The notes beneath the pieces are model-generated. The model was not told the DNA's origin. It did no database searches and saw only the letters and a list, made by a program, of their open reading frames with translations. Both the position numbers and the translations under genes were made by a program. This document shows positions 4,904 to 55,969 of a stretch of DNA of 61,514 bases, in pieces. The first letter of the stretch is position 1, and each line of letters begins with the position of its first letter. Source of the DNA: an uncultured Candidatus Saccharibacteria bacterium (GTDB lineage: Bacteria > Patescibacteriota > Minisyncoccia > Portnoybacterales > UBA2143); contig CAZJPW010000003.1 of the NCBI GenBank assembly GCA_964548405.1, positions 1 to 61,514 on the forward strand, written 5' to 3'.

Positions 4904-7900
4904 ATGATAAAAATGAAAAAAGTTGTCTCAATTGTAACTTCTGTTGCTACAACTGTCTCTCTTTCAGGTGTTGCTTTATTAATGCCTGTAGCCACTATGG
5001 CTGCTGACGTTGTCGATGGCGATTTAATTCGCAATCCAAGCGCCGCAGGATTGGCTTCACTTGACATTTACATTGTCAAGGTTGTGGGTGAAAAGAAGTT
5101 CAAGAGACTAATTTTAAGCCCTCATGTATTTGAGAGCTATGCACACTTTGACAAAAACGGTAATGGTGATAACTGGGATGATGTCATGGATGTTGATCAA
5201 GCAACCATGGACGCCTACACTACTACTGATTTAGTCAGAGAAGATGGTAACGATAAAGTTTATCGTCTATATGCTGCTGACGGATCTGATACTGGTGATA
5301 AGTATTGGCTTAATATGACTGCCAGCGACTTTACAGCAGTCTTTGACGCTGATGCTATTTATACCATTAATAGTACCGACACAGCAGGCTATACAGCCGG
5401 CGCAAACGTTACCGATGCTAGCGCAACTTTCCCACCTGTAGGTGGTGATGTTGTTACTAGTACAGGAACTTTAACAGCTACTTTGGCAGCTGATACTCCA
5501 GCTGCGGGTATTGCTGTTGAGAGCGCAGCTAGAATGCCTTTTACAAAGGTTAATCTAACTGCCACAGGCGGCGATGTTATTGTTGATTCATTGGTGATTG
5601 AAAGAGTTGGTTTAGCTAATGACAGCAACTTCTCTTCAATAGATGTTATTGATGGAGGCACAAATCTGCCTCTTAACGTTACCAGCAAGACATTAAATTC
5701 CTTGCATAAGGCTACCTTTAATGATGACTTTACTGTTGCTAATGGCACAACTAAGTCAATCATTCTTGCTGCCAATATGGTTGCTACTTTGGATGCTTAT
5801 GCTGGTGAAGTGCCTGCTTTGAGTTTAGCGGCAATAACCACTAAAGGCGATGCTACGGTAAGCGGCAGTTTGCCTCTCACTGGTAATGCGCAGACAATCA
5901 ACGCTACTATTGTTATTGGCTCAGCAACAATTCAAAGAGGAGCTTACACTAATGCTACTTCTACAACCATCCAGGTTGGAAAAGAAGATTATACTTACTT
6001 TTCTTTCCAGGTAGCAGCTGGTTCAGCTGAAAAAGTTGAATTCAGCCAGGTTAAGGTTTACCAGGAAGGCAGCGCTAGTTTAGGTTCTGATTTAATTAAT
6101 CTTGAATTACTTCAAGATGGTACCAAGATTGCCGATGGCGTAATTGCCAGCAGCAAATATGCTAACTTCAGCTTTGATAAAATCACTTTGGATAAGGGCG
6201 AGACTGCTCAATTCCAAATAAAAGCTGATGTGGCTGATGGTTCAGCTCGAACCGTTATTCTTGGTATTTACAAGACAACTGACTTGTTAGTTGAAGGTGT
6301 AACCTATGGTTACAATATTACTCCAACTTATAGTGGCACAGGTTCTAGCGCCAGCAGTCCTGTCTTAAGCGACAACTCGTTCACTATTTCTAATGGTACC
6401 TTACAGGTTACTAGAAGTAATACGGTTGCCGCAGGAAATGTTTCAGTAGCCAACGACCAAGTTCTTGGCGCCTTTGAATTTGAAGTTAAAGGTGAAATTA
6501 TTGATATTTCCGCTTTGACTTTGACTGTTACTTCTGGTGGAGGTACTGCTCAGATTGAAGACGCTTTATCAGGTGTAGAGTTAATAGATGCGGCCGGCAA
6601 TGTTGTGGCTGGACCAACTGATATAACTAATGATGCTTTAACAGTTGCTTGGACAGATACCTTTAGCGTGCCAGTTGGTAATACGATTTATAGAGTTAGA
6701 GGTGATTTATCAACTAGTGGTGGTTGGGCGAGTGATGACACAATTTATGTCAGCTTTACCCCAGGAGATATGACCGCTACCGGTGATAACACTGGTAACG
6801 CTATCACTCCAACTCCAAGTTCAGCTATTCAGGCTAATACTCAAACAGTTAAGGCCGCTTCTTTGACCGTAACTAGAAATACCTTACCAGCTTCTGCTAC
6901 CATTATTGTTAATCAGAAGGATCTGGTTCTAAATAGTTGGAACTTTGATGCTACTGATTCTGGAGAAGATGTTAGAATTACTTCAATTCTTGCAGCTGGA
7001 AAAGGTCAAGCTGCTACTAACACTGACGCTTTAACTTTGTTTATTGATGAAGACAAAGATGGCGTTTTTGACAGCAGTGATACAACTCTATCGCCAGTTA
7101 ATGATGCAATCGCATCAGCGGCAGCATCTTCTACCTTTGCCTTAAGCGATCCAATCATTGTTACCAAAGGAACTAATATTCATGTTGCTATTAAGGGTGA
7201 CAAGGATACAGTTGCTTCTAACGATACAGAAACTTGGGGTTTGACTGATACAGCTGCTTCAGTAATTGCTTATGGGGTTAACACCGGTAATTCAGTTACT
7301 GAATCTTTAACAGCTGACGATGGTCCAACCTTAACTTCGGTTGCTAATGGAACATTGGTTATTGAAACAACGGGTAATCCTTCAGCTGCGATTGTCTTAG
7401 CCGGATCAACTGGTAATGTATTTACTAATGTTGGTCTAACAGCTAAGTATGAAGCTCTTGATGTTGATAAGCTAACTGTTTTTGTTGGCGATGGTAGTTA
7501 TGCCTTTAATGCAGCGGCTGGTAACTATCAAGATGTTACCAATGTGTCTATTTATGATGGCACAACTCTATTGGGTAGCGCTTCTGTTCCGTCAACCGGC
7601 AGTTATACCTTTAACTTTGATAAAGGTACCTTAGTTGTGCCTAAGGGTACAAATAATGGTAAGATTATTACTGTTAAGGCGGATATGAGTACAGTTGATC
7701 CAGACACTGATAACGCTCCAGGTACTGCTAATGCTGATGTTAAAATTGGTATTGGTGGCGCGAGTGGTATTAAGACAACTGGTCAAGAATCAAATACCGA
7801 AATTACAACTAGCACCTACGAGACCTATCGTAGTTCAACTAGTTCGGAAATGGTTCTAAAGGTCAGCAAACCAACTGTAACTTTGCCAAGCTCAAGTGAT

Positions 7901-8524
7901 TCCTTGGGCGCAGCCACTACATTAACTGACGGCAGTTTGATTATTTATGCCTTTAAGGTGACAGCTGATGCTTCAGGCAGTGACGTATTATTGTACCGAA
8001 CTACCTTTGCTATCGCTTCATCCGGTTCAGGCATGACTGTTACTAATGTCCGTATTGTTGATGAAGATGGTAATACCATTAAGGCAGCTGCTAACCCAAC
8101 TGACTTAACTAGTGATGGTCAGTTTGACTATTACTACACTGCGACTTTCAATAGTCCAGATGTAGATAATGGAGATGCTTTAGAAGCCATTAAGATTTCA
8201 GCCGGTACTAGCAAGACCTTTAAGGTTTACGCTACTATTGCTGGATCTAGCGCTAATGAAAGTGTGACTACATACTTAATTGGTGATACAGCTTCTACTT
8301 CAGCTCAAGTCAACTCTGCCAACCAGGCTGACTTCTTCCAGGCACCAAACGGTGACTTCGCTTCAGATGTTACCAACTTTGTCTGGTCGGATAACTATAA
8401 GCAGTCTAGTATTACTGGTACGGATGGCAATAACGCTACTGACACGACTCAGTGGTATAACGGCCATTTAATTCCAGGATTAGGTAATGTAGTAAGTACC
8501 ACTTCCTACATTATCAGTCGGTAA
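4904..8524 (+). CDS. Major surface (S-layer-like) protein, 1206 aa
   Basis: Signal peptide MKKVVSIVTS...VATMA (alternative start 4913); N-terminal shared domain; long T/S/A/G-rich beta-type body; GCT/ACT/GGT/GTT-rich codons; its own promoter and terminator. Confidence 0.75.
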   Translation: MIKMKKVVSIVTSVATTVSLSGVALLMPVATMAADVVDGDLIRNPSAAGLASLDIYIVKVVGEKKFKRLILSPHVFESYAHFDKNGNGDNWDDVMDVDQATMDAYTTTDLVREDGNDKVYRLYAADGSDTGDKYWLNMTASDFTAVFDADAIYTINSTDTAGYTAGANVTDASATFPPVGGDVVTSTGTLTATLAADTPAAGIAVESAARMPFTKVNLTATGGDVIVDSLVIERVGLANDSNFSSIDVIDGGTNLPLNVTSKTLNSLHKATFNDDFTVANGTTKSIILAANMVATLDAYAGEVPALSLAAITTKGDATVSGSLPLTGNAQTINATIVIGSATIQRGAYTNATSTTIQVGKEDYTYFSFQVAAGSAEKVEFSQVKVYQEGSASLGSDLINLELLQDGTKIADGVIASSKYANFSFDKITLDKGETAQFQIKADVADGSARTVILGIYKTTDLLVEGVTYGYNITPTYSGTGSSASSPVLSDNSFTISNGTLQVTRSNTVAAGNVSVANDQVLGAFEFEVKGEIIDISALTLTVTSGGGTAQIEDALSGVELIDAAGNVVAGPTDITNDALTVAWTDTFSVPVGNTIYRVRGDLSTSGGWASDDTIYVSFTPGDMTATGDNTGNAITPTPSSAIQANTQTVKAASLTVTRNTLPASATIIVNQKDLVLNSWNFDATDSGEDVRITSILAAGKGQAATNTDALTLFIDEDKDGVFDSSDTTLSPVNDAIASAAASSTFALSDPIIVTKGTNIHVAIKGDKDTVASNDTETWGLTDTAASVIAYGVNTGNSVTESLTADDGPTLTSVANGTLVIETTGNPSAAIVLAGSTGNVFTNVGLTAKYEALDVDKLTVFVGDGSYAFNAAAGNYQDVTNVSIYDGTTLLGSASVPSTGSYTFNFDKGTLVVPKGTNNGKIITVKADMSTVDPDTDNAPGTANADVKIGIGGASGIKTTGQESNTEITTSTYETYRSSTSSEMVLKVSKPTVTLPSSSDSLGAATTLTDGSLIIYAFKVTADASGSDVLLYRTTFAIASSGSGMTVTNVRIVDEDGNTIKAAANPTDLTSDGQFDYYYTATFNSPDVDNGDALEAIKISAGTSKTFKVYATIAGSSANESVTTYLIGDTASTSAQVNSANQADFFQAPNGDFASDVTNFVWSDNYKQSSITGTDGNNATDTTQWYNGHLIPGLGNVVSTTSYIISR

Positions 8525-8557
8525 TCGCTAGCTAATCATAGAATAGATTGAAATGGA

Positions 8558-8587
8558 AAAGCTCCCCGCAGTACTGCGGGGAGCTTT
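8558..8587. terminator. Perfect 30-bp palindrome, putative terminator
   Basis: AAAGCTCCCCGCAGT|ACTGCGGGGAGCTTT, 33 nt after the stop codon. Confidence 0.75.
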
Positions 8588-8590
8588 GAG

Positions 8591-8599
8591 TTATCCACA
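8591..8599 (+). promoter_or_regulatory. DnaA box consensus
   Basis: Exact TTATCCACA; the only perfect copy noticed. Confidence 0.45.
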
Positions 8600-8626
8600 G
8601 TTGACGTTGTTTTGTAATGTTTATTT

Positions 8627-8637
8627 TGTGGTATAAT
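8627..8637 (+). promoter_or_regulatory. Extended -10 promoter
   Basis: TGTG-G-TATAAT upstream of the 8866 and 10119 genes. Confidence 0.65.
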
Positions 8638-8865: not shown

Positions 8866-10095
8866 GTGTTCCTAGTTTCAGTAGCTGTTTACGCAGCGAC
8901 AACCGTCGGTACAAATATTAGCACGGACGGAACAGTAACTATGGAAAGCGCTTCAACCACTAATGACTTTTGGTTGGGAAATGTTATTGCTGATGATGAT
9001 GATTCCCTTTTCTTTGATGCCTCTGGAACAGAGTATATAATGTGGGATGACGATCCCGGAGAATTTGATTTTAGCGATGATCTAAATATAGTTGGCGTAA
9101 CAACTAGCACCTTAGCTTTTTGGGCTGGCGCTGGTGGCACAGTTGATAATATTAATATGACTGGCGGCGATGTCTATGTTCAGAACGACGTAGAAATTGA
9201 TGGCGCCTTATATCTAACTGGCGCAGCAACTGTTACTGGTCTAGCGACTTTTGACAGAGCTACATCTACTTCAGCTACTACCACTGATTATCTATATATT
9301 GGTCCAGACGGCGCTGAAGGTACTTTTGATTTTAGTGGCGGTGATTTGTATGTTGCTGATGATGTAGAAATTGAAGACGTCTTGAATGTTGCTGGTTTAT
9401 CGACTTTTACTGGGTTTATTTCGACAGCTTCATCGACGGTAGACGCGAATCTAAATATTACAGGAAACTCTACTTCAACTAATGCTACTACGACTGGCTC
9501 AATGAATATAGACGGCGATTTACAAGTTGATGGAACAGCAGATATCACTGGCGCAGTAACTGTCACTGGTCTAGCGACTTTTGACAAGGCTACATCTACT
9601 TCGGCTACTACCACTGATTATCTATATATTGGTCCAGACGGCACTGAAGATTTCTTTGATTTTAGTGGCGGTGACTTGTATGTTGCAGATGACGCAGAAG
9701 TAGAGGATGATTTGAATGTAGGTGGTTTTGCTAGTTCGACTGGAGATATGAATACTCAAGCAAACGCGCATGTGGGCGGTACTTTCGATGTTGATGGCAC
9801 TGCTGCTCTTGGTGGTGGTAATGCTATTACTAAGTTCATGTTTGGTACTTGTGATATTGCTACTGTTTCAGTTAGCGCCACAAGCACTGCTTTTATTGAG
9901 TGTACTTCCGCGACTGGGGTGCAATCCGGTGATAATGTATTTGTTACGGCAACCAGCTCCTTACCAGAGAACTTTATTATCCAAGCTGCTTCCTCTACGG
10001 TCTCTGATGAGATTTCTTTAAGGATATTTAATGCTGGCAGCATTGAAGGAACTGATACAGGCGCTCGAACCTTCTTCTGGCAGGCAATGCGGTAA
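8866..10095 (+). CDS. Secreted S/T/D-rich surface protein with internal repeat; true start uncertain
   Basis: ATTVGTNISTDG N-terminus and ATSTSATTT motifs. The frame is open upstream to 8821 and encodes KSIKILASLLSVFISVFLVSVAVYA (signal-peptide-like) with no in-frame ATG. Confidence 0.75.
   Translation: MFLVSVAVYAATTVGTNISTDGTVTMESASTTNDFWLGNVIADDDDSLFFDASGTEYIMWDDDPGEFDFSDDLNIVGVTTSTLAFWAGAGGTVDNINMTGGDVYVQNDVEIDGALYLTGAATVTGLATFDRATSTSATTTDYLYIGPDGAEGTFDFSGGDLYVADDVEIEDVLNVAGLSTFTGFISTASSTVDANLNITGNSTSTNATTTGSMNIDGDLQVDGTADITGAVTVTGLATFDKATSTSATTTDYLYIGPDGTEDFFDFSGGDLYVADDAEVEDDLNVGGFASSTGDMNTQANAHVGGTFDVDGTAALGGGNAITKFMFGTCDIATVSVSATSTAFIECTSATGVQSGDNVFVTATSSLPENFIIQAASSTVSDEISLRIFNAGSIEGTDTGARTFFWQAMR
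9217..9728 (+). repeat. Intragenic direct repeat of ~180 nt, offset 330 nt
   Basis: 9217-~9398 versus 9547-~9728, e.g. ctagcgacttttgaca at 9241 and 9571. Confidence 0.9.
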
Positions 10096-10118: not shown

Positions 10119-11666
10119 ATGAAAAAAATTGTAATAACAATTTTAGCTTTATTGCTTTTGCCAGTTGGCGTTGGAGCGACGGCTGATGCGCTTACGTTTG
10201 CCCAAAATACTAATATTACAGTTGGAGATAATACTTTTGTAGTTTTAATTAACTCTTTAGTAGATGATATGGTGATTAATTCTACTAGCGTTACTTTTAC
10301 TCTTTCTGCAAATTCAATATTGGTTATCAGGTCAAATGATAGATATCAGATGCCAAATAACGCATCAATAGACTTTACCTGTAATAGTTCTTATTCGGAG
10401 ATGAATATTTCGGGAACCACTTATGGTACCAGCGTAACAATTACTGCTTCTAGCGCTGTTTGTAGCACTAGCAGTGGTAGTAGTACTTCTGTTAGTAGCG
10501 GCGGCGGTGGCGGTGGCGCTACAACAGTTACACCAAGCACACCAAGTGTGCCGACTACTACTACGGGTGAGGTAACAGCGACTGCTTCAGGTGGTGGTAA
10601 GACGACTTTGACAACGAGCGAAAGTACGACAGTTGTTGCTGAATTACCAGCTAATGCAGTTAGCGCTTCAACTGATGTTAAAGTAGAAGAAGCAGGTAAA
10701 AGTGTTGTTACGGCTTCTCGGCCAATTCCTTCTAGTAGAACTATTGTTGGTGACTATGCCTATGATTTTACAGCTACCTCTGGCGGGAGTTCAGTCAGTA
10801 ACTTTGATCAGGCAGTAACTTTGACCTTCACCTATACAGATAGTCAGGTTGCTGGATTAGAAGAATCAACTTTGAGAGTCTTTTATTGGAAGGAATCTAC
10901 TTCTCAATGGGTTGCTTTGCCAACTACGGTGGATGCGAGTAATAATAGTTTGACAGCCGAAACTGATCACTTTACTTATTTTGCTGTTATGGCTGTGGCT
11001 GAAGGCGAAGAAGAAAGTGAAATAGTTGAGGAAATATCATCTACCGGAGTTGTAGAGGGTGATTTAATCCGTAATCCTAATGCCGAAGGCATGGCCCAAT
11101 TTGACATATATATTGTCAAGTTAATTAATAACAAGAAGTTTAAGAGATTGATTCTGTCTCCCCATGTCTTTGAAAGTTATGAGCATTTTGACAAAGATGG
11201 CAATGGCAGTCCCTGGAATGATGTTCTTGATGTAAATCAGCTAACTATGGACGAGTATGCTAATTCTGATTTGGTTAGAGTTGTTGGAGGGACTAAGGTC
11301 TATCAATTAATTCCATCTGGCGATACTGGGACTAAGCAATGGTTGAATATGACAGGTGAGCAATTTGTTTCTCAAGGATATGATGGAGATTCTATCTATG
11401 AGATTAATGCCACTGATCAAGATGCCTATACTACTGGAACGGATGTTGGCGGCGGAACAGCAGATTCAGACACTATTATCATCACAATCTCCACCTTAAG
11501 AGTCAGAAGCTTGCCTTCCACGAATGGAGAAGTGCTTACTAATGTTTCTGAGGGAGAAGTTTATACTCTACTTGATGAACAAGATGGTTGGTATAAGATT
11601 ACAGCTAATGGTGTTACGGGATGGTGTTATGGCGGAGATACTGGTGGTTATGCATCTAAGCAGTAA
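10119..11666 (+). CDS. Secreted surface protein: G/S/T linker, HFT-motif domain, shared anchor-like domain, C-terminal SH3b
   Basis: Signal peptide; SSGGGGGG linker; LRVFYW...SQWVALPTTVD...TDHFTYFAV; GDLIRNP...[16 protein letters not shown]; LRVRSLPSTNGEVL...GWYKI...GW. Confidence 0.8.
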   Translation: MKKIVITILALLLLPVGVGATADALTFAQNTNITVGDNTFVVLINSLVDDMVINSTSVTFTLSANSILVIRSNDRYQMPNNASIDFTCNSSYSEMNISGTTYGTSVTITASSAVCSTSSGSSTSVSSGGGGGGATTVTPSTPSVPTTTTGEVTATASGGGKTTLTTSESTTVVAELPANAVSASTDVKVEEAGKSVVTASRPIPSSRTIVGDYAYDFTATSGGSSVSNFDQAVTLTFTYTDSQVAGLEESTLRVFYWKESTSQWVALPTTVDASNNSLTAETDHFTYFAVMAVAEGEEESEIVEEISSTGVVEGDLIRNPNAEGMAQFDIYIVKLINNKKFKRLILSPHVFESYEHFDKDGNGSPWNDVLDVNQLTMDEYANSDLVRVVGGTKVYQLIPSGDTGTKQWLNMTGEQFVSQGYDGDSIYEINATDQDAYTTGTDVGGGTADSDTIIITISTLRVRSLPSTNGEVLTNVSEGEVYTLLDEQDGWYKITANGVTGWCYGGDTGGYASKQ

Positions 11667-11733: not shown

Positions 11734-14075
<2,342 letters not shown>

Positions 14076-14079
<4 letters not shown>

Positions 14080-16349
14080 ACTTAGAAAAAACCTTAAAAG
14101 GAATTATTTGGATTGGTTTAGCCGGTATTTGTTTTGTCCCTTTAATAGTCGGTAGTAGTTATTATTTTCCATATATTGTTCCCAAAACACTAGCTTTTAG
14201 GGTTATTGTTGAGGTTATTTTTTTGGCCTTTTTAGGCTTGGCTATTCTTAGGAAAGAATATCGATCAAAATTTAATTTAGTTTTGGTTTTGTTTTTTTTC
14301 TATTTAGTTACGGTTTTTATTTCTTCGGCTTTGTCTGGTTCTTTTAATTTTAGTTTTTGGAGTAATAATGAACGGAGCGAAGGACTCCTTTTATTATTGC
14401 ACCTTTTTATCTATTTAATTGTCTTGAGCGGGTTTTTACGTCGGCTTAAAGATTGGCTGATTGTTTTTGAAATTTCTTTTTTAAGCAGTATTCTAGTCAC
14501 TTTGTATTCAATAGGTCAGCATTTCCATCTTAGCGGCTTCATTGTTTCAGCAGGTGGCGCTCGAATTACAGCTACAATTGGTAATGCTGGTTATGTGGCT
14601 GGTTATTTAATCTTTAATTTACTTTTTGGTCTGTTACTTTTTTATTTTAGAAAGAATAAATTTTTGCGCTGGTACTATATCTTGGGTATTCTTTTACAGA
14701 TATATATTATTTTTAACACTTTGACTCGAGGTGGTATTATTGCTTTAGTTTTTTCATTAGCTCTGTTTATTGGATATTTAGCTTTTTCTTATTTAAAAAA
14801 TAATAAACTGGTTAAAAGAGCGGGTTTAGGATTAATTATTCTCTTTATAATATTTACCAGTTTTGTTTTTGCTAATAAAGAGGCTGATTGGATTAGGAAT
14901 AATAATGTTTTAGAAAGAATTACTAGTATTTCTGTTAGTGCCACCACAGCTCAAAATCGTTTAATGACTTGGGAATCATCTTACAAGGGTTTTAAAGAAA
15001 AGCCGATTCTTGGTTATGGTTACGAAAACTTTTATCAAGTTTTTGATAAGTATTTTAATCCTAGAATTTATCGTCATGCTGGTTCAGTTGTTTGGTTTGA
15101 TCGAGCTCATAATATGATTTTTGATCGTTTGATTACAGGTGGATTAATTGGTTTGTTTTTATATTTAGCTTTGTTAATTTTACCTCTTTTTTATATCTGG
15201 AAGCATTTTTTGAAAAACAAGACATCAAGCGGCTATTATCTGCCAGTGATATTTAGTTTGATAATATTAGCATATTTAATTCAAAATATGTTCATTTTTG
15301 AAGCTTTAGTTACCTATATTCCTCTTTTTATTGTTTTAGCTTTTCTTTCTCAATTTTGTCCTGATTGGGGTAAGAATATTTCCCAATCAAAAAAACCTTA
15401 CTCAATTCTTTTAGTTTTGTGTATTATTATTGCAGTTCCTTTGACCTTTATGTTAAATGTTAAGCCGATTTTGGCTAATAGGGATTTTATTAAGGCCCTA
15501 ATCTATTCTCAGCAAAATATGCCAACCCAGGCCTATGATGGATTTATTGATGTTTTAGATAGGGATACTTTAGGCAATCAAGAATATAGGCAGCATTTTG
15601 GTGAATTTATTGCTACAACAATTAATCTGCCTGATAAAAAAACTGAAGAGAATTGGGAGAAGACGATTACTGTCAGAGGAGAGCAGGAGTTTGAAAATCA
15701 GATGGCAGAAAAGCCGTTAGCTGCTCGAAATTATCTGATGACTATGAGGTTTTTGCTTAAAACTTACCAATACGACATTAGTCGTTTGGAAAAAGCAATA
15801 GAAATAGGTAAACAGGTTGAAAAATTAAGTCCTAATCGTCCTCAAATATTTTATGAGGTTGGCTATAGTAAATATTATTTGGGTAAATATTTTGAGAATG
15901 CTGGGCGAAAAGAAGAGGCAGGAAAACTTTTTGATGAAGCAATAGTTAATATGCAAAAAGCAATTGATTTGCAAGATCAGGTGACCGAATCATATATTAA
16001 TATGATTATGCTTCTCTTGGTTACTAATCGAAGTGATGGCATTCAAGCTTATTTTGATAAAATGGATCAATTTGGCCTAAGTTATCACGATGAAGCTAGC
16101 TTAGTGCGTATGGCTAATTCAGCTATTCAATCTAAAGAATACGAATGGACTAAAAGATTTTACCAGGAATTAGTTAAAACTTCCCCTGATAAACCGAATA
16201 ACTGGGTAAATCTAGCCTTAGCTTATGCTTATTTAGGGCAAAAAGAAAAAGCCATAGAAACGGCTGAAAGAATTAAGGAGTTTGGTGGAGATTATGCTCG
16301 GCAATCCGATTTGTTTATTCAGGATATTTTAAGTGGGGGATTTGATTAG
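14076..16349 (+). CDS. O-antigen-ligase-like (Wzy_C) membrane protein with C-terminal TPRs; candidate oligosaccharyltransferase
   Basis: About 12 TM helices; TIGNAGYVA, TLTRGG, GYGYENF, FDRAHNMIFDRLITGGLIG; TPR-like tail. Confidence 0.85.
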
Positions 16350-17371
16350 TTTTTGGTTTTGTGTGTTTTGTTAAAATTTATACTTATGCCGTAAAAGTCA
16401 GTATTACCTAAGGAGCATTTTTGGCATAGATTGTATTTTTTAAGGAGAGCTGTTCTCCTTTTTTTAATTGTCTCTGGCATAGTAAATGTTTTAATAAAGC
16501 CTTGTTCTTTAATACTGGGAAACTTAACAATACTATCAAAATCTCCACAACAAAGACCAAGTGTCCCGTTCCAATAAACTACAGCTTGTCTTAAAGGAAC
16601 AGTGCAGATCGTTTTTTTAATTTTGGACCTTTCTCTTCTGAGTTTTTTGCTTGGCAATAAATAACTGTATTTGTTTTTCATTTCAGCGGTAGTATAGGTT
16701 CCCATGCTTAATGATTTTAAATTTATTGCATCAACTCCTATATTTTTTGCCCATAAAGTTATTTCTTTTATTTCTTTTTCTGAAAATGAAGTTAAAAGAG
16801 TTTGGATAGTAATGAATGGTTTTTCAGTTTTTAATTGTTTTTTTAAAAATACAAAATTTTCAATATTTTTCTTAACTTCTTCAAACTCAGAGCCGATTCT
16901 ATAAGCTTCGTGAGATTCTTTTGTTGTTCCTTCAATGCATAAATGTATAGAATCTAGCCCATTTTTTATTAATTTTTTTGATAATTCCTTAGTTAATGTT
17001 GTTGCGTTTGTACTTATATATGTTGGACATCCTTTTTGATATGCGTATTTAACTAATTTGTCTATGTTTTTATGTAGAAGAGGTTCTCCTGCAAAGCTCA
17101 TTAAAATTCTGGGCTTTGTTTTTTTATTTTCGAAATCATCAATAATAGATTTAAATAAATCAAGATCAATGAATCCTTTTTTTCTTTTCATCGCAAAATG
17201 TGTTGGACAGACAGGACATCTTAAATTACAAGCATTAGTTGGTTCAATAACAATCTCTGAAGGTATTTTTTTGAATATTTGTTGTGGACAAAACTTGGCT
17301 AATCTAGCAATAATATCCCAAGCTATTTGATATTTTTTTATTTTTGATTTAACTATATTATAGAGAGTCAT
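16346..17371 (-). CDS. Radical SAM protein with SPASM/twitch domain
   Basis: IEPTNACNLRCPVC; FAGEPLL; C-terminal CTVP...GLCC...CQKC. Confidence 0.88.
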   Translation of the reverse strand: MTLYNIVKSKIKKYQIAWDIIARLAKFCPQQIFKKIPSEIVIEPTNACNLRCPVCPTHFAMKRKKGFIDLDLFKSIIDDFENKKTKPRILMSFAGEPLLHKNIDKLVKYAYQKGCPTYISTNATTLTKELSKKLIKNGLDSIHLCIEGTTKESHEAYRIGSEFEEVKKNIENFVFLKKQLKTEKPFITIQTLLTSFSEKEIKEITLWAKNIGVDAINLKSLSMGTYTTAEMKNKYSYLLPSKKLRRERSKIKKTICTVPLRQAVVYWNGTLGLCCGDFDSIVKFPSIKEQGFIKTFTMPETIKKRRTALLKKYNLCQKCSLGNTDFYGISINFNKTHKTKN

Positions 17372-19671: not shown

Positions 19672-20825
19672 ATAAAAGAATTTTAATTTTAACAGGTGTT
19701 TTTTTAGAAGAGATAGGCGGACCGCCTACTTTATTAAAAGCGCTCAATTTGGAATTAATTAAGCGTGGTTACCAAGTGACAGTTTTAACTTTTGGTTCTA
19801 AAAAAGAAGCTAAAAAATATCCTTATCCAGTTAAAGTTGTTTCAGATAGGTGGCCATATTTTATCCAATCTCCCTTGTATTTATTAAAAGGGATGCTTTT
19901 GAGTTTGAGAGTAGATGTTTTGTATAATTTGGATTTATATGTGGCTGGATTTGCTGGTCTGTTAATCAAAAAGTTTTTGGGGAAAAAATTGGTAACTAGA
20001 TTTGTGGGTGATCCGGCTTGGGAAATAGCGTTGAATCAAGGAATAACTCAGGATGATATTTTTGATTTCCAGGATAAGAAATATTCTTTTCTAATCGAGC
20101 AAAGAAGAAGAGCCAGAAAAAAGATATTAGGTAATTCAGATAAGGTAATAGTGGTTAGCTATTTTCTTAAAAAGCTGGCTATTAAAATTGGTTTACCTGA
20201 AGAAAAGATTAAAGTAATTTATAATTCTATTGATTTTTTGGACATAAAAGGTGATCCGAAAATAAATCTTAAAAAAGAACTTAATATTTCTGGTAAGGTT
20301 ATTTTAACCAATGCTCGTTTGACCCCATGGAAAGGTGTCGATATGTTGATTAAATTGATGCCTAAATTGATTAAAAAATACGAGGATATTAAGTTTGTTA
20401 TTATCAGTGACGGGCCAGAAAGGAAAAACCTTGAAAAATTAGCTATTGATTTGGATGTTGAAGAATATATTCTTTTTGTTGGACGGGTTAGTCGGAAATT
20501 GGTTGTGGAGTATTTAAAAATATCTGATGTTTTTGTTTTAAATACAAATTATGAAGGAATGTCTTTTTCAATCTTAGAAGCCATCAAAGTCGGTTTGCCT
20601 GTCATTACTACTCCAGCTGGTGGTAATCCAGAAACGATTAAAGACAAAGAGACCGGTTTATTAGTTGAATATCGTAATAAGGAACAATGGTTGGAAGCGA
20701 TTAATTCAGTTTTGGATAATAAAGAATTAGCTGGAAGATTTGTAGCTAATGCCAAAGAAGATTTAAAAAGATTTTCCTGGAATGATTTGGTTGAAAAAAC
20801 AATAAGGGTTTTTGAGAAGTTATAA
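19668..20825 (+). CDS. Glycosyltransferase family 4
   Basis: IGGPPT, ARLTPWKG, NTNYEGMSFSILEA. Confidence 0.9.
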   Translation: MNKRILILTGVFLEEIGGPPTLLKALNLELIKRGYQVTVLTFGSKKEAKKYPYPVKVVSDRWPYFIQSPLYLLKGMLLSLRVDVLYNLDLYVAGFAGLLIKKFLGKKLVTRFVGDPAWEIALNQGITQDDIFDFQDKKYSFLIEQRRRARKKILGNSDKVIVVSYFLKKLAIKIGLPEEKIKVIYNSIDFLDIKGDPKINLKKELNISGKVILTNARLTPWKGVDMLIKLMPKLIKKYEDIKFVIISDGPERKNLEKLAIDLDVEEYILFVGRVSRKLVVEYLKISDVFVLNTNYEGMSFSILEAIKVGLPVITTPAGGNPETIKDKETGLLVEYRNKEQWLEAINSVLDNKELAGRFVANAKEDLKRFSWNDLVEKTIRVFEKL

Positions 20826-28483: not shown

Positions 28484-29121
28484 AAACATTTGATTTTATT
28501 AGACAAGTTTTTAAGGGTAAAAGTATTTACCGGATTCTGTTTAACTGGCAGGTTCAAGAACATTGCCAGGATTTAAATGGTAAATGTCTTGATTTAGCTG
28601 GGGGTAAAAACCCGAGTTATCATAGATATTGGTCTTTTAAAAATGATACTGAATTGATTAAAACTGATTTAAATGGTGGTTTAAAGGTGGATTTGAATAA
28701 GGATTTGCCTTTTGATGATAATTCAATGGATAATGTTTTCTTTTTTAACGCTATCTATATTATTAAAGAGCCAGAAAAACTAATCAAAGAAATTCATCGG
28801 GTTCTTAAACCAGAAGGAAATCTATTTATTGCTTCGCCTTTTATTTTTAATGAGGCCAAAGAGCCGAGCGATTACCGACGGCTGACTTCACAGGGTTTAG
28901 AAGAATTACTAAAACAAGGCGGATTTAATGATTTTAAAATTATTCCTTTTGGAGAAAGATTTACGGCTGGTGTCCATTTATGGCACAGTTTCTTTCTTTT
29001 TAACTTTATCCGTCTAATCGCTTTTACCAAAGCAATGGTTTTTGATAAATGGATTCCTAGGAAAATAAAGAAATTTCATCCTTGTCCATTAGGGTATTTT
29101 ATAATTATTAAAAAAACATGA
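28480..29121 (+). CDS. Class I SAM-dependent methyltransferase
   Basis: CLDLAGG, LPFDDNSMD, EIHRVLKPEG, DYRRLT. Confidence 0.85.
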   Translation: MKTFDFIRQVFKGKSIYRILFNWQVQEHCQDLNGKCLDLAGGKNPSYHRYWSFKNDTELIKTDLNGGLKVDLNKDLPFDDNSMDNVFFFNAIYIIKEPEKLIKEIHRVLKPEGNLFIASPFIFNEAKEPSDYRRLTSQGLEELLKQGGFNDFKIIPFGERFTAGVHLWHSFFLFNFIRLIAFTKAMVFDKWIPRKIKKFHPCPLGYFIIIKKT

Positions 29122-42042: not shown

Positions 42043-43470
42043 ATGTCTACTAAAGTCTGTTTAATAAATGTTTCTTGGGAAAAATCTATCAGGGCTAATT
42101 ATGCAGATATTATAGAAAAGGGAATAGGTTTTTATCAGCCATTAGGATTGCAGTATCTTTCTTCTGCCTGTAGAGATAAAGATTACGAGACGATGATTAT
42201 TGACTGTGATCCGGAAGAATTAAATTACGAACAGGCAATTAATAAGATTAAATTATATGGTCCACAAGTAATAGGGATTACTTGTATGACTTTTAATTTA
42301 TTTGAAGCAGTGATTTTTCTTAAAAAATTAAGATTATCGTTTCCGAATATTCCGGTAGTGGTTGGAGGTCCGCATGCCAGTATTTTTCCCGAAGAAACTT
42401 TGCGAATACCTTCAGTTGACGTGGTTGTAGTCGGAGAAGGAGAGGAAATTTTTCCAGAAATAATTCATAGATTAACAAATAATATTCCGCTTAATGGATT
42501 GAAAGGAGTTAGTTATAAAAAAGAAAATAAATTATATTTTAATTCGGAGATAGCTGTTATTCAGGATTTAAGTTCTTTGTCTTTTCCTGATAGAACTTCG
42601 TTGTCTATTGATAATTATTTCACTCCGATAAGCCCGAGCGGAAAAAGTGCGATTATGATGACTAGCCGAGGATGTCCGTATAATTGTACTTATTGCGACA
42701 GGCCGGCTATGGGGAAAAAGTTTAGGGCCAGATCTCCTCAAAGTGTAATTACCGAAATAAAAGATTGTTTGAAAATCGGAGTTGAGGATATTATGTTTTT
42801 TGACGACACTTTTACAGTGGACAGAAGCAGGGTAATTGAAATATGTAAATTAATTAATAAAGAGAAATTGAAATTTAGATGGTCTGCTCGAGCCAGAGTT
42901 AATACTATTGATGAAGATTTACTATTGGCCATGAAAAAGGCTGGCTGTTGTAGAATATCTTATGGTATAGAGTCAGGCAATATTCAAACTCTTAAAATTT
43001 TAAAGAAAGGTATTTCTTTGGATCAGGCAAAGAAAGCGGTTGAAATTACAAAGAAAGTGGGTATAGAAGTGTTAGCTGATTTTATTCTTGGATGTCCTAA
43101 TGAAAATAGACAAGATGTTTTGAATACGATAAATTTCGCGGTTTCCTTGAATCCTGATTACGCCCAATTTACAATTTTAAGTTTGTATCCAGGAACAGAA
43201 ATTTATCAAATGGCTCTTGAACAAAAGATTATTAAATCTGATGTATGGAGGGAATTTGCTATAGACCCCCGATTAGATTTTAATACGCCAATTTGGTTGG
43301 CAGAACTATCTCAAAAAGAATTAGAAGAATTACTTATTTTTGCCTATAAAAAGTTTTACGGGCGTTTGGGATATATTGTTAAAAAAATGCTGAGAATTAG
43401 AAGTCTTAGCGAATTGGCGCTCAAAGCAAAAGTCGGTTTTAGAATGCTAACTATGGGAAAATCCAGATGA
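42043..43470 (+). CDS. B12-binding-domain radical SAM protein no. 4
   Basis: PLGLQYL, VGGPHAS, VGEGE, SRGCPYNCTYC, YGIESG. Confidence 0.9.
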   Translation: MSTKVCLINVSWEKSIRANYADIIEKGIGFYQPLGLQYLSSACRDKDYETMIIDCDPEELNYEQAINKIKLYGPQVIGITCMTFNLFEAVIFLKKLRLSFPNIPVVVGGPHASIFPEETLRIPSVDVVVVGEGEEIFPEIIHRLTNNIPLNGLKGVSYKKENKLYFNSEIAVIQDLSSLSFPDRTSLSIDNYFTPISPSGKSAIMMTSRGCPYNCTYCDRPAMGKKFRARSPQSVITEIKDCLKIGVEDIMFFDDTFTVDRSRVIEICKLINKEKLKFRWSARARVNTIDEDLLLAMKKAGCCRISYGIESGNIQTLKILKKGISLDQAKKAVEITKKVGIEVLADFILGCPNENRQDVLNTINFAVSLNPDYAQFTILSLYPGTEIYQMALEQKIIKSDVWREFAIDPRLDFNTPIWLAELSQKELEELLIFAYKKFYGRLGYIVKKMLRIRSLSELALKAKVGFRMLTMGKSR

Positions 43471-44891
43471 ATATTACATTAATAAATCCATGTTTTAATA
43501 GGTATGCTGGTATTAAGGGACATGGCGGACTCTCGGCTCCTTTGAATTTGGCCTGCCTAGCTGCTTATATCCGCCTAAAACGGCCTAATGATAAAATTTC
43601 CATTATAGACGCAGAAGCTCTTAATTATACTTATCAGAATATTGTTGAGAAAACTCTTGCCAATAATCCTGATTTAATAGGAATAACAACTACCACGCCT
43701 AGTTTCGGCATAATTTCCAATTTGGTGGGCAAACTTCACCAGGCTATTCCTTCTGCGCCGATTATTTTAGGCGGACCCCATGCTACCGGTTCGCCGGAAA
43801 CAACTGTATCGGTTCGAGGAGTGGCAGCAGCGGTAATCGGAGAAGGGGAGCTAACCTTTCTAGATATTGTTAATAAGGTCAAAAATAATATATCTTTTCC
43901 AGAGATAAAAGGAATAGCTTATCAGGATGTCAATGGGAAGTGTATAAAAACAGAACCAAGAGAACTTATTTATGATTTAGATGCTCTGCCTTTGCCTGCT
44001 AGAGATTTGTTGCCGATGGATATATATTATTCACCTCCGACTAAAAGTTTAGGAGGAACAAGGATTGCCAATATTCTTTCTTCAAGAGGATGTCCGTTTC
44101 ATTGTTCTTTTTGTTTATCTGATATGATGTGGGGGAAGAGGTATAGGCAGCGTTCTATTAATAAAATTATTGAAGAAATGGAAGATTGTGCTAATAATTA
44201 TGGCTGTGATGAATTTAATTTTAATGATGATTTGTTTACAGCTGATAAAAATAGAGTAAAAGGATTTTGTGATAAGATTGTTGAGAAAAAGATTAATATT
44301 AGCTGGGTGGCTATGAGTAGGGCAGATTACGTTGATATGGATTTATTGAAGACAATGAAAAAAGCAGGATGCAAGAAAATTGCTATGGGACTTGAATCCG
44401 GTTCAGAAAAAGTTTTGAAATATATGAATAAAAGAATGAATTTAGATAAATCTATTGAAGCGGTAAAAATGATTAAAAAAGCTGGTATTGCTACAGGTGC
44501 TTCTTTTGTTCTTGGCCATATTGGAGAAACGAGAGAGACTATAAAACAGACAATAGCATTTGCAAAAAAACTTAATCCTGATACGGTTGCTTTTTTTCAA
44601 GCCAGTCCCTACCCCGGTACGGAATTTTATAGAATGGCCAAAGAGGCGGGATATATAAGAGAAAATGCTCAATGGGTTGATTATGCTATTGTTTCGGATA
44701 GGTCGTCAGTTATTGACTTACCGGGACTACCGGCCCAAGAAATTCATAAATGGGTGAAAAGAGCCTATAGTTCTTTTTATTTTAGTCCAAGATATATATT
44801 TTCTAGAATAAAAAAAATTAATTCATGGAAATCGTTTATAGATAATTTAAAAGGACTGAAAATTTTATTTTCAATAGTTAAAAGCGATTAG
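43467..44891 (+). CDS. B12-binding-domain radical SAM protein no. 5
   Basis: LGGPHAT, IGEGE, SRGCPFHCSFC, MGLESG. Confidence 0.9.
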   Translation: MNITLINPCFNRYAGIKGHGGLSAPLNLACLAAYIRLKRPNDKISIIDAEALNYTYQNIVEKTLANNPDLIGITTTTPSFGIISNLVGKLHQAIPSAPIILGGPHATGSPETTVSVRGVAAAVIGEGELTFLDIVNKVKNNISFPEIKGIAYQDVNGKCIKTEPRELIYDLDALPLPARDLLPMDIYYSPPTKSLGGTRIANILSSRGCPFHCSFCLSDMMWGKRYRQRSINKIIEEMEDCANNYGCDEFNFNDDLFTADKNRVKGFCDKIVEKKINISWVAMSRADYVDMDLLKTMKKAGCKKIAMGLESGSEKVLKYMNKRMNLDKSIEAVKMIKKAGIATGASFVLGHIGETRETIKQTIAFAKKLNPDTVAFFQASPYPGTEFYRMAKEAGYIRENAQWVDYAIVSDRSSVIDLPGLPAQEIHKWVKRAYSSFYFSPRYIFSRIKKINSWKSFIDNLKGLKILFSIVKSD

Positions 44892-51326: not shown

Positions 51327-52784
51327 ATGATTAATAAAAAAATAATTCTTTTAATCCCACCGCAAGAAAAATTTTCAAAAGATTATATTCCTTCTTTAGG
51401 TGTTGGCTATGTTGCAGCAAATTTAGAAAAAAATGGTTATAAAGTAAAAATAATTGATAGTCATACTGAACACTATGATAATAGTATAACAATTAAAAGG
51501 ATTTTGGAAGAGGATCCTTCAGCTGTTGGAGTTACTGGCGTAACTCAAAATCGTTTTAACGCTATTGAGATTATAAGGGAATTAAAAAAACAGCGAAAAG
51601 ACCTGTTTATTTTTGTTGGTGGAAGACATTTTCATCATACGTCTAAATCTACTCTTTCTTTGGTTCCTGAAATTGATGTTATCGTCAAGGGAGAAGGCGA
51701 AATAACAGCAGTTGAATTATTAGATAACTATTTTAACAAAGGTGATTTTAGTAAAGTTTTGGGCATTGTTTATTGTAAAGACAGAGAAATAATCAGCACA
51801 CCAGAGAGACCTTTAATTAAAAATTTAGATGAATTACCTGTTCATGCATGGCATTTATTTGATCTATCTAAATACGATGCTACATTAGAAGGAGAATATA
51901 AAACACGTTCTATTGGAGTAATTAGTTCTCGTGGTTGTCCAAATCAATGTACTTTTTGCGCTAATGCTTCTTTTTGGAATACTTTAAGACTGCGCAGTCC
52001 GAAAAATTTTGTTGATGAAGTAGAATTTTTGTATAAAAACTATAATTATCAAGGTTTTGACTTTTGGGACGATACAATAACTCTAAATAGAAACCATATA
52101 TTTGGGATCTGTCAGGAAATTATAAATAGAGGATTAGATATTATTTGGTATGCCAGAGCTAGGGTTAATACTATTGATGAAGAAATGTTAAGAATTATGA
52201 GAAAAGCTGGATGTAGAATTATTAGCTTTGGAGTGGAATCCGGCAGTGAAAATATTTTAAAGAATATTAAAAAAAATATTACTTTAGAACAAATTAAAAA
52301 AGCTTTTGAATTATCAGCTAAGCTTGGTTTTATTACTAAGGCCTTTTTTATGTTTAGTTTGCCCGGTGAAAAATTAATTGATATAAAAGAAACCAACAAA
52401 TTAATTTATAGATTATTAAGCTACGGAAGAAAATATAGAGTATCAGTCTATATTGAAAAAGCCTATACTTTAATTTATCCGGGAACCGAGATTGAGAAAG
52501 AGGCAATTAAAGAAGGATGTTTAGATAAAAATTTTAATTGGAATAAGAAACAGAAAATTAAACGTTCTGTAGAATTAAACCTTAATCCCCATATTCCCGT
52601 TTATGAAAATAAGGATTTACCAATCGAAAAAATAAAAGAATTCAACAGAAAATTAGATTTAAAGCCAATTAATATTCTTAGAAAAACTTTTTATCATTTA
52701 AGTCAAATAAAGAAACTTTCTGATTTGAGGCGTGTTTATAAACTAATTAAATTATTTATAAAAAAATTATTGACTCATATCTGA
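51327..52784 (+). CDS. B12-binding-domain radical SAM protein no. 6
   Basis: VGGRHF, KGEGE, SRGCPNQCTFC, FGVESG. Confidence 0.9.
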   Translation: MINKKIILLIPPQEKFSKDYIPSLGVGYVAANLEKNGYKVKIIDSHTEHYDNSITIKRILEEDPSAVGVTGVTQNRFNAIEIIRELKKQRKDLFIFVGGRHFHHTSKSTLSLVPEIDVIVKGEGEITAVELLDNYFNKGDFSKVLGIVYCKDREIISTPERPLIKNLDELPVHAWHLFDLSKYDATLEGEYKTRSIGVISSRGCPNQCTFCANASFWNTLRLRSPKNFVDEVEFLYKNYNYQGFDFWDDTITLNRNHIFGICQEIINRGLDIIWYARARVNTIDEEMLRIMRKAGCRIISFGVESGSENILKNIKKNITLEQIKKAFELSAKLGFITKAFFMFSLPGEKLIDIKETNKLIYRLLSYGRKYRVSVYIEKAYTLIYPGTEIEKEAIKEGCLDKNFNWNKKQKIKRSVELNLNPHIPVYENKDLPIEKIKEFNRKLDLKPINILRKTFYHLSQIKKLSDLRRVYKLIKLFIKKLLTHI

Positions 52785-52805
52785 TTGAGGTATACTCATT
52801 GATTT

Positions 52806-54158: not shown

Positions 54159-54165
54159 TAATTCT

Positions 54166-54210
54166 ATTCTACCATTTCAATTTGATAAATCAAGCCAAAT
54201 AAGGTAAAAT
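54166..54210. promoter_or_regulatory. Divergent promoter pair, both with leaderless spacing
   Basis: Plus strand: TTGATA (54182), N17, TAAAAT, N7, ATG 54218. Minus strand: TTGATT, N16, then TAGAAT (54171-54166) preceded by TGG, N7, ATG 54158. Confidence 0.65.
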
Positions 54211-54217
54211 ATTTATT

Positions 54218-55969
54218 ATGAAGAAGTATTTAATATTATTCTGTCTAAGTTTTTTACTGTTCGTTTTTAACGTTGAAGCGGCTTCTTTGGGTGAGGAAGT
54301 TGATTTTTTTGTTGATTCTGGTTATGACAGTGATAACCGTAGTCAGCTAACAGCTACTTTAAAAGTTATGGGCGACAATATCTATTTTTATGTTGATAAT
54401 TATTACCATGATAATCTTAATGGCACTCTAAAAAATGGTTTAAGGGAAAGATTAGAAAATTTAGCTGATGAATTTGACAATGTTATTTATCCCAAGTTAA
54501 GAGCAGTTTATGGTTCTGAATGGAATCCAGGTATTGATAATGATTCCAGAATTACTGTTTTGATCAGTCAGTTGATTAACACGGCTGGTGGCTATATTAA
54601 TGTTTATGACTCTTTTTCCAAAGAAAATATTGCCAGCTCTAATCAAAGAGAAATGATTTATTTGAATGCCTTAAATATTTTTAGTAAAAATAATAAGGCC
54701 TTTTTAGCTCATGAATTTCAGCATTTAATCACTCTTTACCAAAAAAGCATTGTTCATGGAAAAGAAGAAGAAGTTTGGTTAAATGAGGCCCGTTCTGAAT
54801 ATGCCCCGACCATTTGTGGGTATAATGATGTTTATGGAGGTAGTTATTTAGCTGATCGGGTTGATACTTTTTTGGATACTCCTTCTGATTCTTTGACTGA
54901 GTGGAAGAATAAAATAGCTGATTATGGAGTAGTTAATCTTTTTCTTCATTATTTAGTTGACTATTATGGCACTGAAATTTTAACTCGGATGATGATGAGT
55001 AATCAGGTTGGTATAGCTAGTATTACTTATGCTTTGGCAGATCTGGGCTATTCTGAAACTTTTTCTGACGTTTTTACTAATTGGGCTTTAGCTAATTATT
55101 TAAATGATTGTCAAATAGGCGACAATTATTGTTATTTGAATGATAATTTGACTTATTTTCGTTTAAATGTTGATTATTCAGCCAGCTATAGCGGTTTTCC
55201 TAATTTGATTGTTAATCGAAGCAGCTCAATCAAGGATTGGGCGCCTTATTGGTACCGTTTTAGACAGGGTGGAACTGTTTCCACAGATAGGGATATTCTT
55301 AAATTGGAATTTGAAGGCCTAGGCGACAGAACTGATTTCAAAGTGCCATATATTGTTTCAGGCTATAACACACCAACTACAGTCAAGTTTATTCCTCTAG
55401 AAGATAAAAAAGGAACCGTCTATATCCCTGAATTTACCAGTTTGGATAAGTCGGTTATTCTTGTTCCTATTAATCAATACAAACAAAGCGATTTTGGCAC
55501 AGACGAACCATCAAGTACATTTACCTTTACTGCTACTAGCGTCGTCACAGCTCCGATTGTAGAAGACATTGCCGAAGACAATGAAGAAGACATTAATGAG
55601 CCGATTGTTAATTATCCGGAAGGAAGCCTGCTCAGAGCTGAAGGCGATTATAGAGTTTATATTATTAAGGGAAGTTACAAGCGTTGGATTCAAACAGCTG
55701 AGATATTTAATAACTATGGGCATTTAACTTGGGATGATATTATTGATGTAAAGCCAAGTGAGTTAGCCCAATATCAGGAAGCTTGGATGATTAGGGCTGA
55801 TGGTGATAAAAAAGTTTATGAGTTGAATGCTGATGCCACTAAACATTGGATTAATATGACGGCTGAGCAGTTTACCTTAACCGGTCACAACTGGGATATG
55901 GTCTTTATTGTTAATGACTGGGAAAGAGATTTTTATACTATCGGAGCTGATGTGATGTTTGTAGAATAA
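54218..55969 (+). CDS. Secreted zinc metallopeptidase-like protein with C-terminal shared anchor-like domain
   Basis: Signal peptide; LAHEFQHLI (HExxH) and WLNEARSE; C-terminal GSLLRAEGDYRVYII...KHWINMTAEQF. Confidence 0.75.
   Translation: MKKYLILFCLSFLLFVFNVEAASLGEEVDFFVDSGYDSDNRSQLTATLKVMGDNIYFYVDNYYHDNLNGTLKNGLRERLENLADEFDNVIYPKLRAVYGSEWNPGIDNDSRITVLISQLINTAGGYINVYDSFSKENIASSNQREMIYLNALNIFSKNNKAFLAHEFQHLITLYQKSIVHGKEEEVWLNEARSEYAPTICGYNDVYGGSYLADRVDTFLDTPSDSLTEWKNKIADYGVVNLFLHYLVDYYGTEILTRMMMSNQVGIASITYALADLGYSETFSDVFTNWALANYLNDCQIGDNYCYLNDNLTYFRLNVDYSASYSGFPNLIVNRSSSIKDWAPYWYRFRQGGTVSTDRDILKLEFEGLGDRTDFKVPYIVSGYNTPTTVKFIPLEDKKGTVYIPEFTSLDKSVILVPINQYKQSDFGTDEPSSTFTFTATSVVTAPIVEDIAEDNEEDINEPIVNYPEGSLLRAEGDYRVYIIKGSYKRWIQTAEIFNNYGHLTWDDIIDVKPSELAQYQEAWMIRADGDKKVYELNADATKHWINMTAEQFTLTGHNWDMVFIVNDWERDFYTIGADVMFVE

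Follow-up and report, generated by a model that had tools for sequence, protein, structure and literature searches.

What holds the surface proteins of an ultra-small patescibacterium on its cell is the question raised by the locus described here. Patescibacteria, or the candidate phyla radiation (CPR), account for much of the diversity of bacteria; nearly all of them are uncultured, and they live by surface contact with other cells. The attachment of their surface-layer (S-layer) and other surface proteins has so far been unexplained. We analysed 61,514 nucleotides of contig CAZJPW010000003.1 (assembly GCA_964548405.1) from an uncultured Candidatus Saccharibacteria bacterium placed in the Portnoybacterales; this whole stretch is referred to below as the window. 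It bears four copies of a protein module of 106–126 amino acids (aa), one in an S-layer-like protein and three in other secreted proteins. With a probability of roughly 0.55, we consider this module to be a non-covalent envelope-anchoring tag, functionally analogous to SLH and CWB2, whose binding to the envelope we infer from the evidence below; as an anchor, it would represent a new family belonging to neither of these two.

Translation of the four intervals yielded the protein sequences quoted in an earlier account of the same DNA (hereafter, the sequence-only reading), and a profile hidden Markov model (HMM) built from the four copies was run against the six-frame translation of the window. 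The results clearly showed exactly four matches (E 1e-63 to 3e-48), the next best having an E of 0.6, and an HMM made from copies 1–3 alone recovered copy 4 (E 1e-16). All four lie on the + strand: copy 1 at 5018..5395 (residues 39–164 of the 1206-aa S-layer-like protein; E 5e-57), copy 2 at 11058..11432 (residues 314–438 of a 515-aa protein; E 4e-63), copy 3 at 13056..13409 (residues 430–547, the C-terminus of a 547-aa protein; E 1e-63) and the divergent copy 4 at 55622..55939 (residues 469–574 of a 583-aa protein; E 3e-48). The HMM envelopes agree with the positions given in the sequence-only reading, except that copy 4 ends at 55939 and not at 55945. At the protein level, copies 1–3 are mutually 61–67% identical, and copy 4 shares 36–39% identity with them. 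Strong purifying selection had been proposed on the grounds that DIYIVK and a 16-residue motif stay constant in copies 1–3 amid synonymous change, and the codon comparison bears this out. Neither motif shows any amino-acid change across copies 1–3, 7–12 of the 48 nucleotides of the 16-residue motif differ despite the same protein, and the pairwise synonymous divergence (dS) between copies is saturated (1.8–3.0), with a ratio of non-synonymous to synonymous divergence (dN/dS) of 0.12–0.27. The module is under purifying selection.

All four host genes are long open reading frames (ORFs) on the + strand, and their products have, as read from the sequence, N-terminal signal peptides of the AxA type with basic and hydrophobic stretches; the passengers attached to the four copies are mutually unrelated. 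In the S-layer-like protein (4904..8524), the module is placed directly behind the signal peptide (residues ~1–34) and is followed by a 25-aa linker (5396–5470) and a body that starts from the conserved LTATLAADTPAAG motif. The 515-aa protein (10119..11666) comprises an N-terminal region, an acidic linker (10995–11057), the module and an SH3b domain (11490–11636) that is separate from the module (PF08239 SH3_3, E 9e-14, residues 458–506); its orthologues are P0046, P0036 and P0128. The 547-aa protein (11769..13412) consists of seven ~50-aa repeats, an (EP)15 linker (12945–13034) and the module. The motif [FY]GS[EK] recurs in it at residues 36, 87, 138, 190, 241, 293 and 344, and the seven repeats probably form a 7-bladed propeller; Pfam and PDB searches with this passenger returned no match. 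In the 583-aa protein (54218..55969), an HEFQH...WLNE motif (54710–54724) precedes an acidic linker (55559–55621) and the module. This motif, read from the sequence, is a gluzincin-type metallopeptidase signature (HExxH), and since Pfam and PDB searches found no match for the passenger, the label "peptidase" is owed to the motif alone.

The sequence-only reading took the module for a single domain of ~115–125 aa. The shared module stands, while the single unit has given way to two homologous repeats of ~55–65 aa. The N-terminal and C-terminal halves align with each other (hhalign E 1e-5), and the AlphaFold2 model of copy 2 (predicted local distance difference test, pLDDT, 91.3; predicted template-modelling score, pTM, 0.81) contains two beta-beta-beta-alpha-beta-alpha units according to DSSP. 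As judged from this alignment and model, the module is a tandem internal duplication of a ~55–65-aa unit. In copy 1, repeat 1 covers 5018–5230 and repeat 2 covers 5231–5395; in copy 2, the repeats lie at 11058–11270 and 11271–11432 (+ strand in both cases). ORFs of ~884–903 codons (stop-to-stop, six-frame) adjoining window-type module genes in other loci (L040 6567–9218, L047 3396–6047 and L032 4530–7238) hold several weak internal repeats of the module superfamily described below, and in L034, L044 and L049, half-module matches of 45–60 aa are found ahead of full modules; the copy number of the ~55-aa unit therefore varies.

Copies 1 and 2 also bear a 7-aa insertion, DK(N/D)GNG(D/S), at 5150–5170 and 11190–11210, respectively, which is present in their orthologues and missing from copies 3 and 4. 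It resembles an EF-hand or DxDxDG calcium loop, shows a local dip in pLDDT and may be a calcium site. A calmodulin match from the PDB search (E 0.1) was caused by this insertion and was rejected as a feature of the family, being confined to copies 1 and 2.

No known family accounts for the module. It had no match in Pfam, NCBIfam or PHROGs, nor in particular to a characterised Pfam family with another function, and PDB sequence searches with a single sequence and with three profiles gave nothing significant. The sequence-only reading had set the module apart from SLH and CWB2, and the profiles agree: SLH (PF00395) matched neither the four window proteins nor the isolated module at E ≤ 1, nor any of 130 family members at E ≤ 1e-4, and CWB2 (PF04122) found no match in the window proteins, the isolated module or the same 130 members. 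None of the LysM, SH3b, PG_binding_1, SPOR, choline-binding, SLAP and GW profiles matches inside the module, and the Foldseek PDB list for the window-type model contains no SLH structure. A sorting signal of the LPXTG, PEP-CTERM or T9SS-CTD type was rejected because the module is N-terminal as often as C-terminal and folds as a 125-aa domain, and a dockerin was rejected by fold and length, though two family members carry cohesin domains.

In its deployment, the module resembles both systems from which it differs in structure. SLH systems ensure non-covalent wall retention of the S-layer and S-layer-associated proteins of Bacillus, Clostridia and Thermoanaerobacter; there, as here, one module built of tandem ~55-aa repeats is common to an S-layer protein (N-terminal) and to many secreted enzymes (N- or C-terminal). 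However, SLH is a helical three-prong spindle with three repeats and a TRAE-type signature, whereas our module is predicted to be alpha/beta with two repeats, and no pyruvyl-transferase (CsaB) gene was seen in the window. With CWB2, known from SlpA and the Cwp family of Clostridioides difficile, it shares the use of one module on the S-layer protein and on paralogues with varied passengers, many of them encoded beside the S-layer gene and a glycan locus. The CWB2 unit is toprim-like, has ~90 aa, is present in triplicate and binds PSII, in contrast to the ~55–65-aa unit found twice in our module.

The family proved to be large. A word-indexed search found only 25 relatives, and an exhaustive profile search was used for the family counts; it gave 2,574 representatives of 50%-identity clusters from metagenomes at E ≤ 1e-3, 1,858 at E ≤ 1e-10 and 660 at E ≤ 1e-30. 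Terminal placement, often behind linkers, on secreted proteins with unrelated passengers had been described for the four window proteins, and a terminal position is also the rule in the best 150 of the 2,574 representatives: 84 carry the module at the C-terminus and 45 at the N-terminus, 7 consist of little else and 14 have it internally, so that it is terminal or whole-protein in 136 of the 150. A mainly cytoplasmic distribution, which the sequence-only reading had named as a result that would speak against an anchor, was not what we found: a crude hydropathy test detected an N-terminal hydrophobic segment in 128 of 144 complete representatives, and the passenger domains among 130 members are all of extracellular types (trypsin-like, S8 and M23 peptidases, SH3b, cohesin, Kelch, CAP, fn3, Ig-like, beta-helix, TIG and PKD), most members being without any known domain. 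Some proteins of ~170 aa (P0015–P0017 and P0020) are composed of a signal peptide and the module only.

That reading had also suggested a comparison of CPR with non-CPR genomes. Species-representative genomes of GTDB were scanned with one strict peptide pattern, which distant non-CPR members could escape; of the 78 loci obtained, nearly all are titled as Patescibacteria lineages (Portnoy-, Paceibacterota, Specht-, Terry-, Moranii- and Parcubacteria). A 13-residue motif of the module was confirmed by tblastn in 99 stretches of these genomes from many lineages. Seven loci (L001, L043, L038, L040, L042, L025 and L063) are titled Nanoarchaeota, Gammaproteobacteria, Omnitrophota or Bathyarchaeota. 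We rejected a wider taxonomic range on their account, as the genes around them share 40–81% identity with CPR-labelled loci or with the window, and they are probably mis-binned or misclassified contigs. The genome matches of the window-type module are thus consistent with Patescibacteria only, and the family as a whole is large, CPR-wide and without annotation or earlier description.

The S-layer-like protein contains no Cys and is composed of 13% Thr, 11.5% Ala, 9.7% Ser and 8.5% Asp, and it has no Pfam match. When its body was searched with the module left out of the query, at least 586 orthologues of ~1,150–1,300 aa were found, all labelled hypothetical, which span the Patescibacteria (Portnoy-, Falkow-, Buchanan-, Doudnabacteria and others). 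Among named lineages, Candidatus Portnoybacteria are the closest relatives of the window. In its Patescibacteria entries, the SymProFold survey (bioRxiv 10.1101/2024.05.28.596244) lists predicted S-layer proteins of the same phylum and the same size class (1131–1274 aa) as the window protein, for example, Doudnabacteria A0A1F5NRV7 of 1264 aa, and the Doudnabacteria orthologues A0A1F5P3U2 and A0A1F5QBV1 are UniProt entries neighbouring those listed there. Matching of the window protein by accession to the S-layer entries named in the survey gave no exact match, and the identity could not be confirmed; the main-text passages of the survey on anchoring domains and on Patescibacteria, and the supplement passages in which the listed Patescibacteria proteins are named, do not describe the module.

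Every orthologue with at least ~57% body identity bears the module at residues ~40–165, and more distant orthologues have different-looking N-terminal modules at the same place. Two such types were compared with ours. Group A (GDLIK..AVYY.G.DGKRYVFP) aligns with the window module over the full length (hhalign probability 97.6%, E 4.5e-12), with further alignments offset by one repeat, and group B, the Doudnabacteria type, aligns at 89% (E 2e-6); neither has a Pfam match. Group A occurs not only on S-layer-like proteins but also on many other secreted proteins, notably cupredoxin proteins of ~265 aa (1,117 matches), so that the superfamily as a whole acts like a tag in common use, and its sequence changes more quickly than that of the S-layer-like body to which it is joined. 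As these alignments indicate, the window module belongs, as one subtype, to a wider repeat superfamily found at the head of S-layer-like orthologues across the Patescibacteria.

The structural comparison proposed in the sequence-only reading had an outcome that depended on the subtype. With the window-type model, Foldseek gave nothing significant (best PDB E 0.46; best E 0.076 in BFVD, the viral set). The model of the sister group A module (pLDDT 94, pTM 0.86; three beta-beta-beta-alpha-beta-alpha units by DSSP) matched the periplasmic repeats of EccB, a core component of mycobacterial type VII (ESX) secretion: the top eleven PDB matches are all EccB, ten of them at E 9e-4 to 1e-2, with a Foldseek probability of up to 0.99 and a global TM-score of 0.25–0.29, a low score of the kind that matching units in a different arrangement would give. 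In the EccB1 structure, four repeats of ~50–57 residues each consist of a four-stranded sheet and two helices (PMC4769845), and both the window-type and the sister models conform to this unit by DSSP. The likeness to the EccB repeats R1–R4 (PF05108; PDB 4KK7, 5EBC, 3X3M, 5CYU and 7NPS) lies in a ~50–60-residue unit with a four-stranded sheet and two helices, arranged in tandem, located outside the cytoplasm and found in organisms without a classical outer membrane. The module differs from EccB in lacking the central core domain and an obligatory transmembrane helix; no ecc genes and no type VII secretion context were found in the window. The EccB repeats weakly resemble PlyCB, the wall-binding lysin subunit (PMC4769845), which belongs to the streptococcal phage lysin PlyC (PDB 4F87), so that PlyCB is tied to our module only through two weak steps; it is missing from the Foldseek lists of both the window-type and the sister models.

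Phage contigs provided another hint as to the target. In two IMG/VR contigs, L085 and L086, proteins with a signal peptide and a group A module are encoded beside lytic transglycosylases. In L085 (584–4973), the adjoining gene codes for an SLT/transglycosylase protein with matches to endolysin and lytic-tail-protein PHROGs; in L086 (3357–4813), the start of the module gene and an SLT_3-like gene overlap, and a terminase small subunit PHROG was matched (E 1e-22). The gene overlap in L086 is reminiscent of two-component lysins. Both contigs are probably from Patescibacteria phages, and they lend circumstantial support to an envelope target for the module, as two cases that both belong to the sister subtype.

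If the module is an anchor, the proteins would be exported by Sec, and the two-repeat module would then keep them, by non-covalent binding, within the wall zone of the envelope. In the S-layer-like protein, the tag lies at the mature N-terminus, an end that would be nearest to the cell, and the accessory proteins, each joined at one end to this tag through a flexible linker, would be displayed on the same surface. In the window, this set would include the propeller, the metallopeptidase-like and the SH3b proteins, and elsewhere peptidases, Ig-like/fn3 proteins, beta-helices and others. In favour of anchoring are the four paralogous copies within 61.5 kb, the terminal placement and extracellular passengers of the family, the recurrence of an S-layer-like gene with two tagged accessory genes in L001, L008 and L009, the sister modules on distant S-layer-like orthologues and on cupredoxins, the likeness of the sister model to EccB and the two phage contigs. 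The partner would most likely be peptidoglycan or a polymer associated with the wall; the window contains MurB and a Glu-racemase-family gene, and, as these indicate, the organism makes peptidoglycan. A candidate binding site is the conserved Lys/Arg/aromatic cluster in repeat 1 (K21, K26, F28, K29, R30, F38, Y41, H43, W53 and R74).

Several points weigh against anchoring. The link of the window subtype to EccB is indirect, passing through the sister subtype, since the window-type model itself had no significant match; at the sequence level, there was no PF05108 match, and no EccB appeared in the PDB profile searches. For EccB, there is no experimental evidence of peptidoglycan binding (PMC4769845), and its periplasmic domain makes protein–protein assemblies in ESX complexes, as the PDB titles state. 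With the strict patterns used, no phage copies of the window subtype or of group B were found, of which the lack of the window subtype counts here. The 1206-aa protein is a probable S-layer protein, and the grounds for this are confined to its size, composition and conservation. Moreover, the window copies are acidic (pI 4.3–4.9; family median 5.5), which makes bulk charge attraction to anionic polymers unlikely; for the same reason, bulk electrostatic binding as in the Lactobacillus SLAP domains was rejected. Finally, as to co-variation of the subtype between the S-layer protein and the accessory proteins of one genome, 105 window-type ORFs were counted around the window-type loci vs. 7 of groups A/B in ~700 kb, the loci having been pre-selected for the window type, and four of these loci hold two subtypes.

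Protein–protein docking is the main rival, though we regard it as doubtful. According to it, the tag self-oligomerises, and accessory proteins plug into the S-layer base through the N-terminal module of the S-layer protein, in the manner of cohesin/dockerin pairs or SlpX-like integration. The assemblies formed by the periplasmic domain of EccB, the closest structural relative, fit this explanation, and so do the stand-alone proteins of signal peptide and module and the acidity that the module shares with its passengers. It is also favoured by subtype matching: a trio of an S-layer-like gene and two tagged accessory genes of the same subtype, as in the window, recurs in L001, L008 and L009. S-layer-like loci with other subtypes (L082, L083 and L084) have no adjacent accessory genes. 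Docking does not readily explain why the superfamily tags hundreds of unrelated small proteins such as cupredoxins, and the phage proteins beside wall-lytic enzymes fit a wall or envelope ligand better than docking to a lattice.

Rather unlikely, in our estimate, is a second explanation, suggested in the sequence-only reading: the ligand of the module would be the polysaccharide produced by the neighbouring 40-kb glycan cluster, here taken as a secondary cell-wall polymer comparable to the pyruvylated one bound by SLH. The S-layer-like gene, the tagged genes and this large Wzx/Wzy-type cluster are contiguous. The cluster encodes an initiating sugar transferase, about ten glycosyltransferases, a Wzx-like flippase, a PMT-like transferase, deacetylases, methyltransferases, an Asn-synthase-like amidotransferase and an oxidoreductase–acetyltransferase fusion; the fusion, WbpB/WbpD-like, and the amidotransferase hint at uronic-acid-type sugars, a further point in favour of this explanation. 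Six B12-binding radical SAM genes (20812–22272, 22269–23696, 29118–30548, 42043–43470, 43467–44891 and 51327–52784) are found in it, an unusual density for one glycan cluster; their products may be C-methyltransferases or other modifiers of the sugar units, and an additional radical SAM/SPASM gene lies at 16346–17371 on the - strand.

The arrangement around the S-layer-like gene bears directly on the choice of ligand. Immediately upstream of it on the + strand, a gene for an extracytoplasmic function (ECF)-type sigma-70 factor (3414–3938) and a DUF5667 gene (3981–4703) were identified by Pfam, and this pair is kept in the contexts of L082 and L083/L084. Further downstream on the same strand, Pfam identified a TPR protein gene (13405–14079; ~225 aa) and a gene for a Wzy_C/O-antigen-ligase-like membrane protein with TPR (14076–16349; ~760 aa). 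The same pair stands downstream of the S-layer-like gene in L082, L083 and L084, whatever the module subtype. GT4 glycosyltransferase genes then follow the Wzy_C/TPR gene, and glycosyltransferase genes also come after the S-layer-like gene in L082 and L083, which again speaks for a neighbouring glycan as the ligand. From an order kept in distant Patescibacteria, it would seem that the S-layer-like protein has its own regulation and its own O-glycosylation or ligation step. Wzy_C-type enzymes include O-oligosaccharyltransferases that glycosylate S-layer proteins and pilins, and a cluster signature of S-layer O-glycosylation is known from Geobacillus WsaB and PglL-type enzymes. Hence, the cluster may decorate the Thr-rich S-layer-like protein rather than supply the ligand of an anchor: the Wzy_C/TPR pair, together with a PMT-like gene present in the window and in L084 and with the 13% Thr, would fit O-glycosylation of the S-layer protein at least as well as a neighbouring-glycan ligand. 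In addition, no TagF, LtaS or CsaB-type genes were found in the window, the Wzy_C and TPR partners do not follow the module subtype, and copy 4 is found next to murB, at the distal end of the cluster.

Two further genes without the module belong to this neighbourhood. A 409-aa ORF (8866–10095), located between the S-layer-like gene and the 515-aa gene and conserved in this position in L079 and L080, contains an internal duplication (ATSTSATTTDYLYIGPDG...FDFSGGDLYVADD) and has a weak bactofilin-like match; read from the listed GTG start, it shows no clear signal peptide. A large secreted protein encoded a short way upstream of the locus (309–2015, extending further upstream; 1190 aa in L080) contains a lamin-tail domain, a PQQ/BamB-like propeller and lectin-like segments, and is probably another surface protein.

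We consider it improbable that the tag is an adhesin that binds the surface of a host cell and delivers peptidases and other effectors to it. Patescibacteria are often episymbionts, and this lineage is inferred in the literature to live on other cells; the passengers include peptidases, an M23 wall endopeptidase and CAP domains, and the rapid divergence of the subtypes relative to the S-layer body could reflect host specificity. What makes host adhesion less likely is that the producer bears the tag on its own conserved S-layer-like protein, at the N-terminus, and on housekeeping-type extracytoplasmic proteins such as cupredoxins, which need retention on the producer, and the extreme conservation of the 13-residue motif across many lineages argues for a conserved self ligand. 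As for the idea that there is no functional module and that the copies go back to chance similarity, recent duplication of the DNA or a mobile repeat, the saturated synonymous sites in a conserved protein (dN/dS 0.12–0.27), the thousands of homologues and the confident fold prediction leave it next to no probability.

Beyond envelope anchoring in the window, we put forward a broader proposal that remains speculative. The beta-beta-beta-alpha-beta-alpha repeat might be an ancient wall-zone binding unit of bacteria without an outer membrane, common to the actinobacterial EccB and to the fast-diversifying address tags found throughout the Patescibacteria. Each CPR lineage would use its own subtype to anchor the S-layer and the displayed proteome to a lineage-specific wall ligand, and CPR phages would have captured the tag for lytic enzymes or receptor-binding proteins. 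If this were true, the module would define the CPR surface proteome from sequence alone, and the periplasmic repeats of EccB would gain a function.

If envelope anchoring holds, a tag recognisable in the sequence would allow the surface proteomes of CPR bacteria to be read from metagenomes and would provide a handle for pull-downs, labelling, cell sorting and the prediction of phage–host links. The tie to EccB, if confirmed, would suggest a role for the unexplained periplasmic repeats in the core of mycobacterial type VII secretion.

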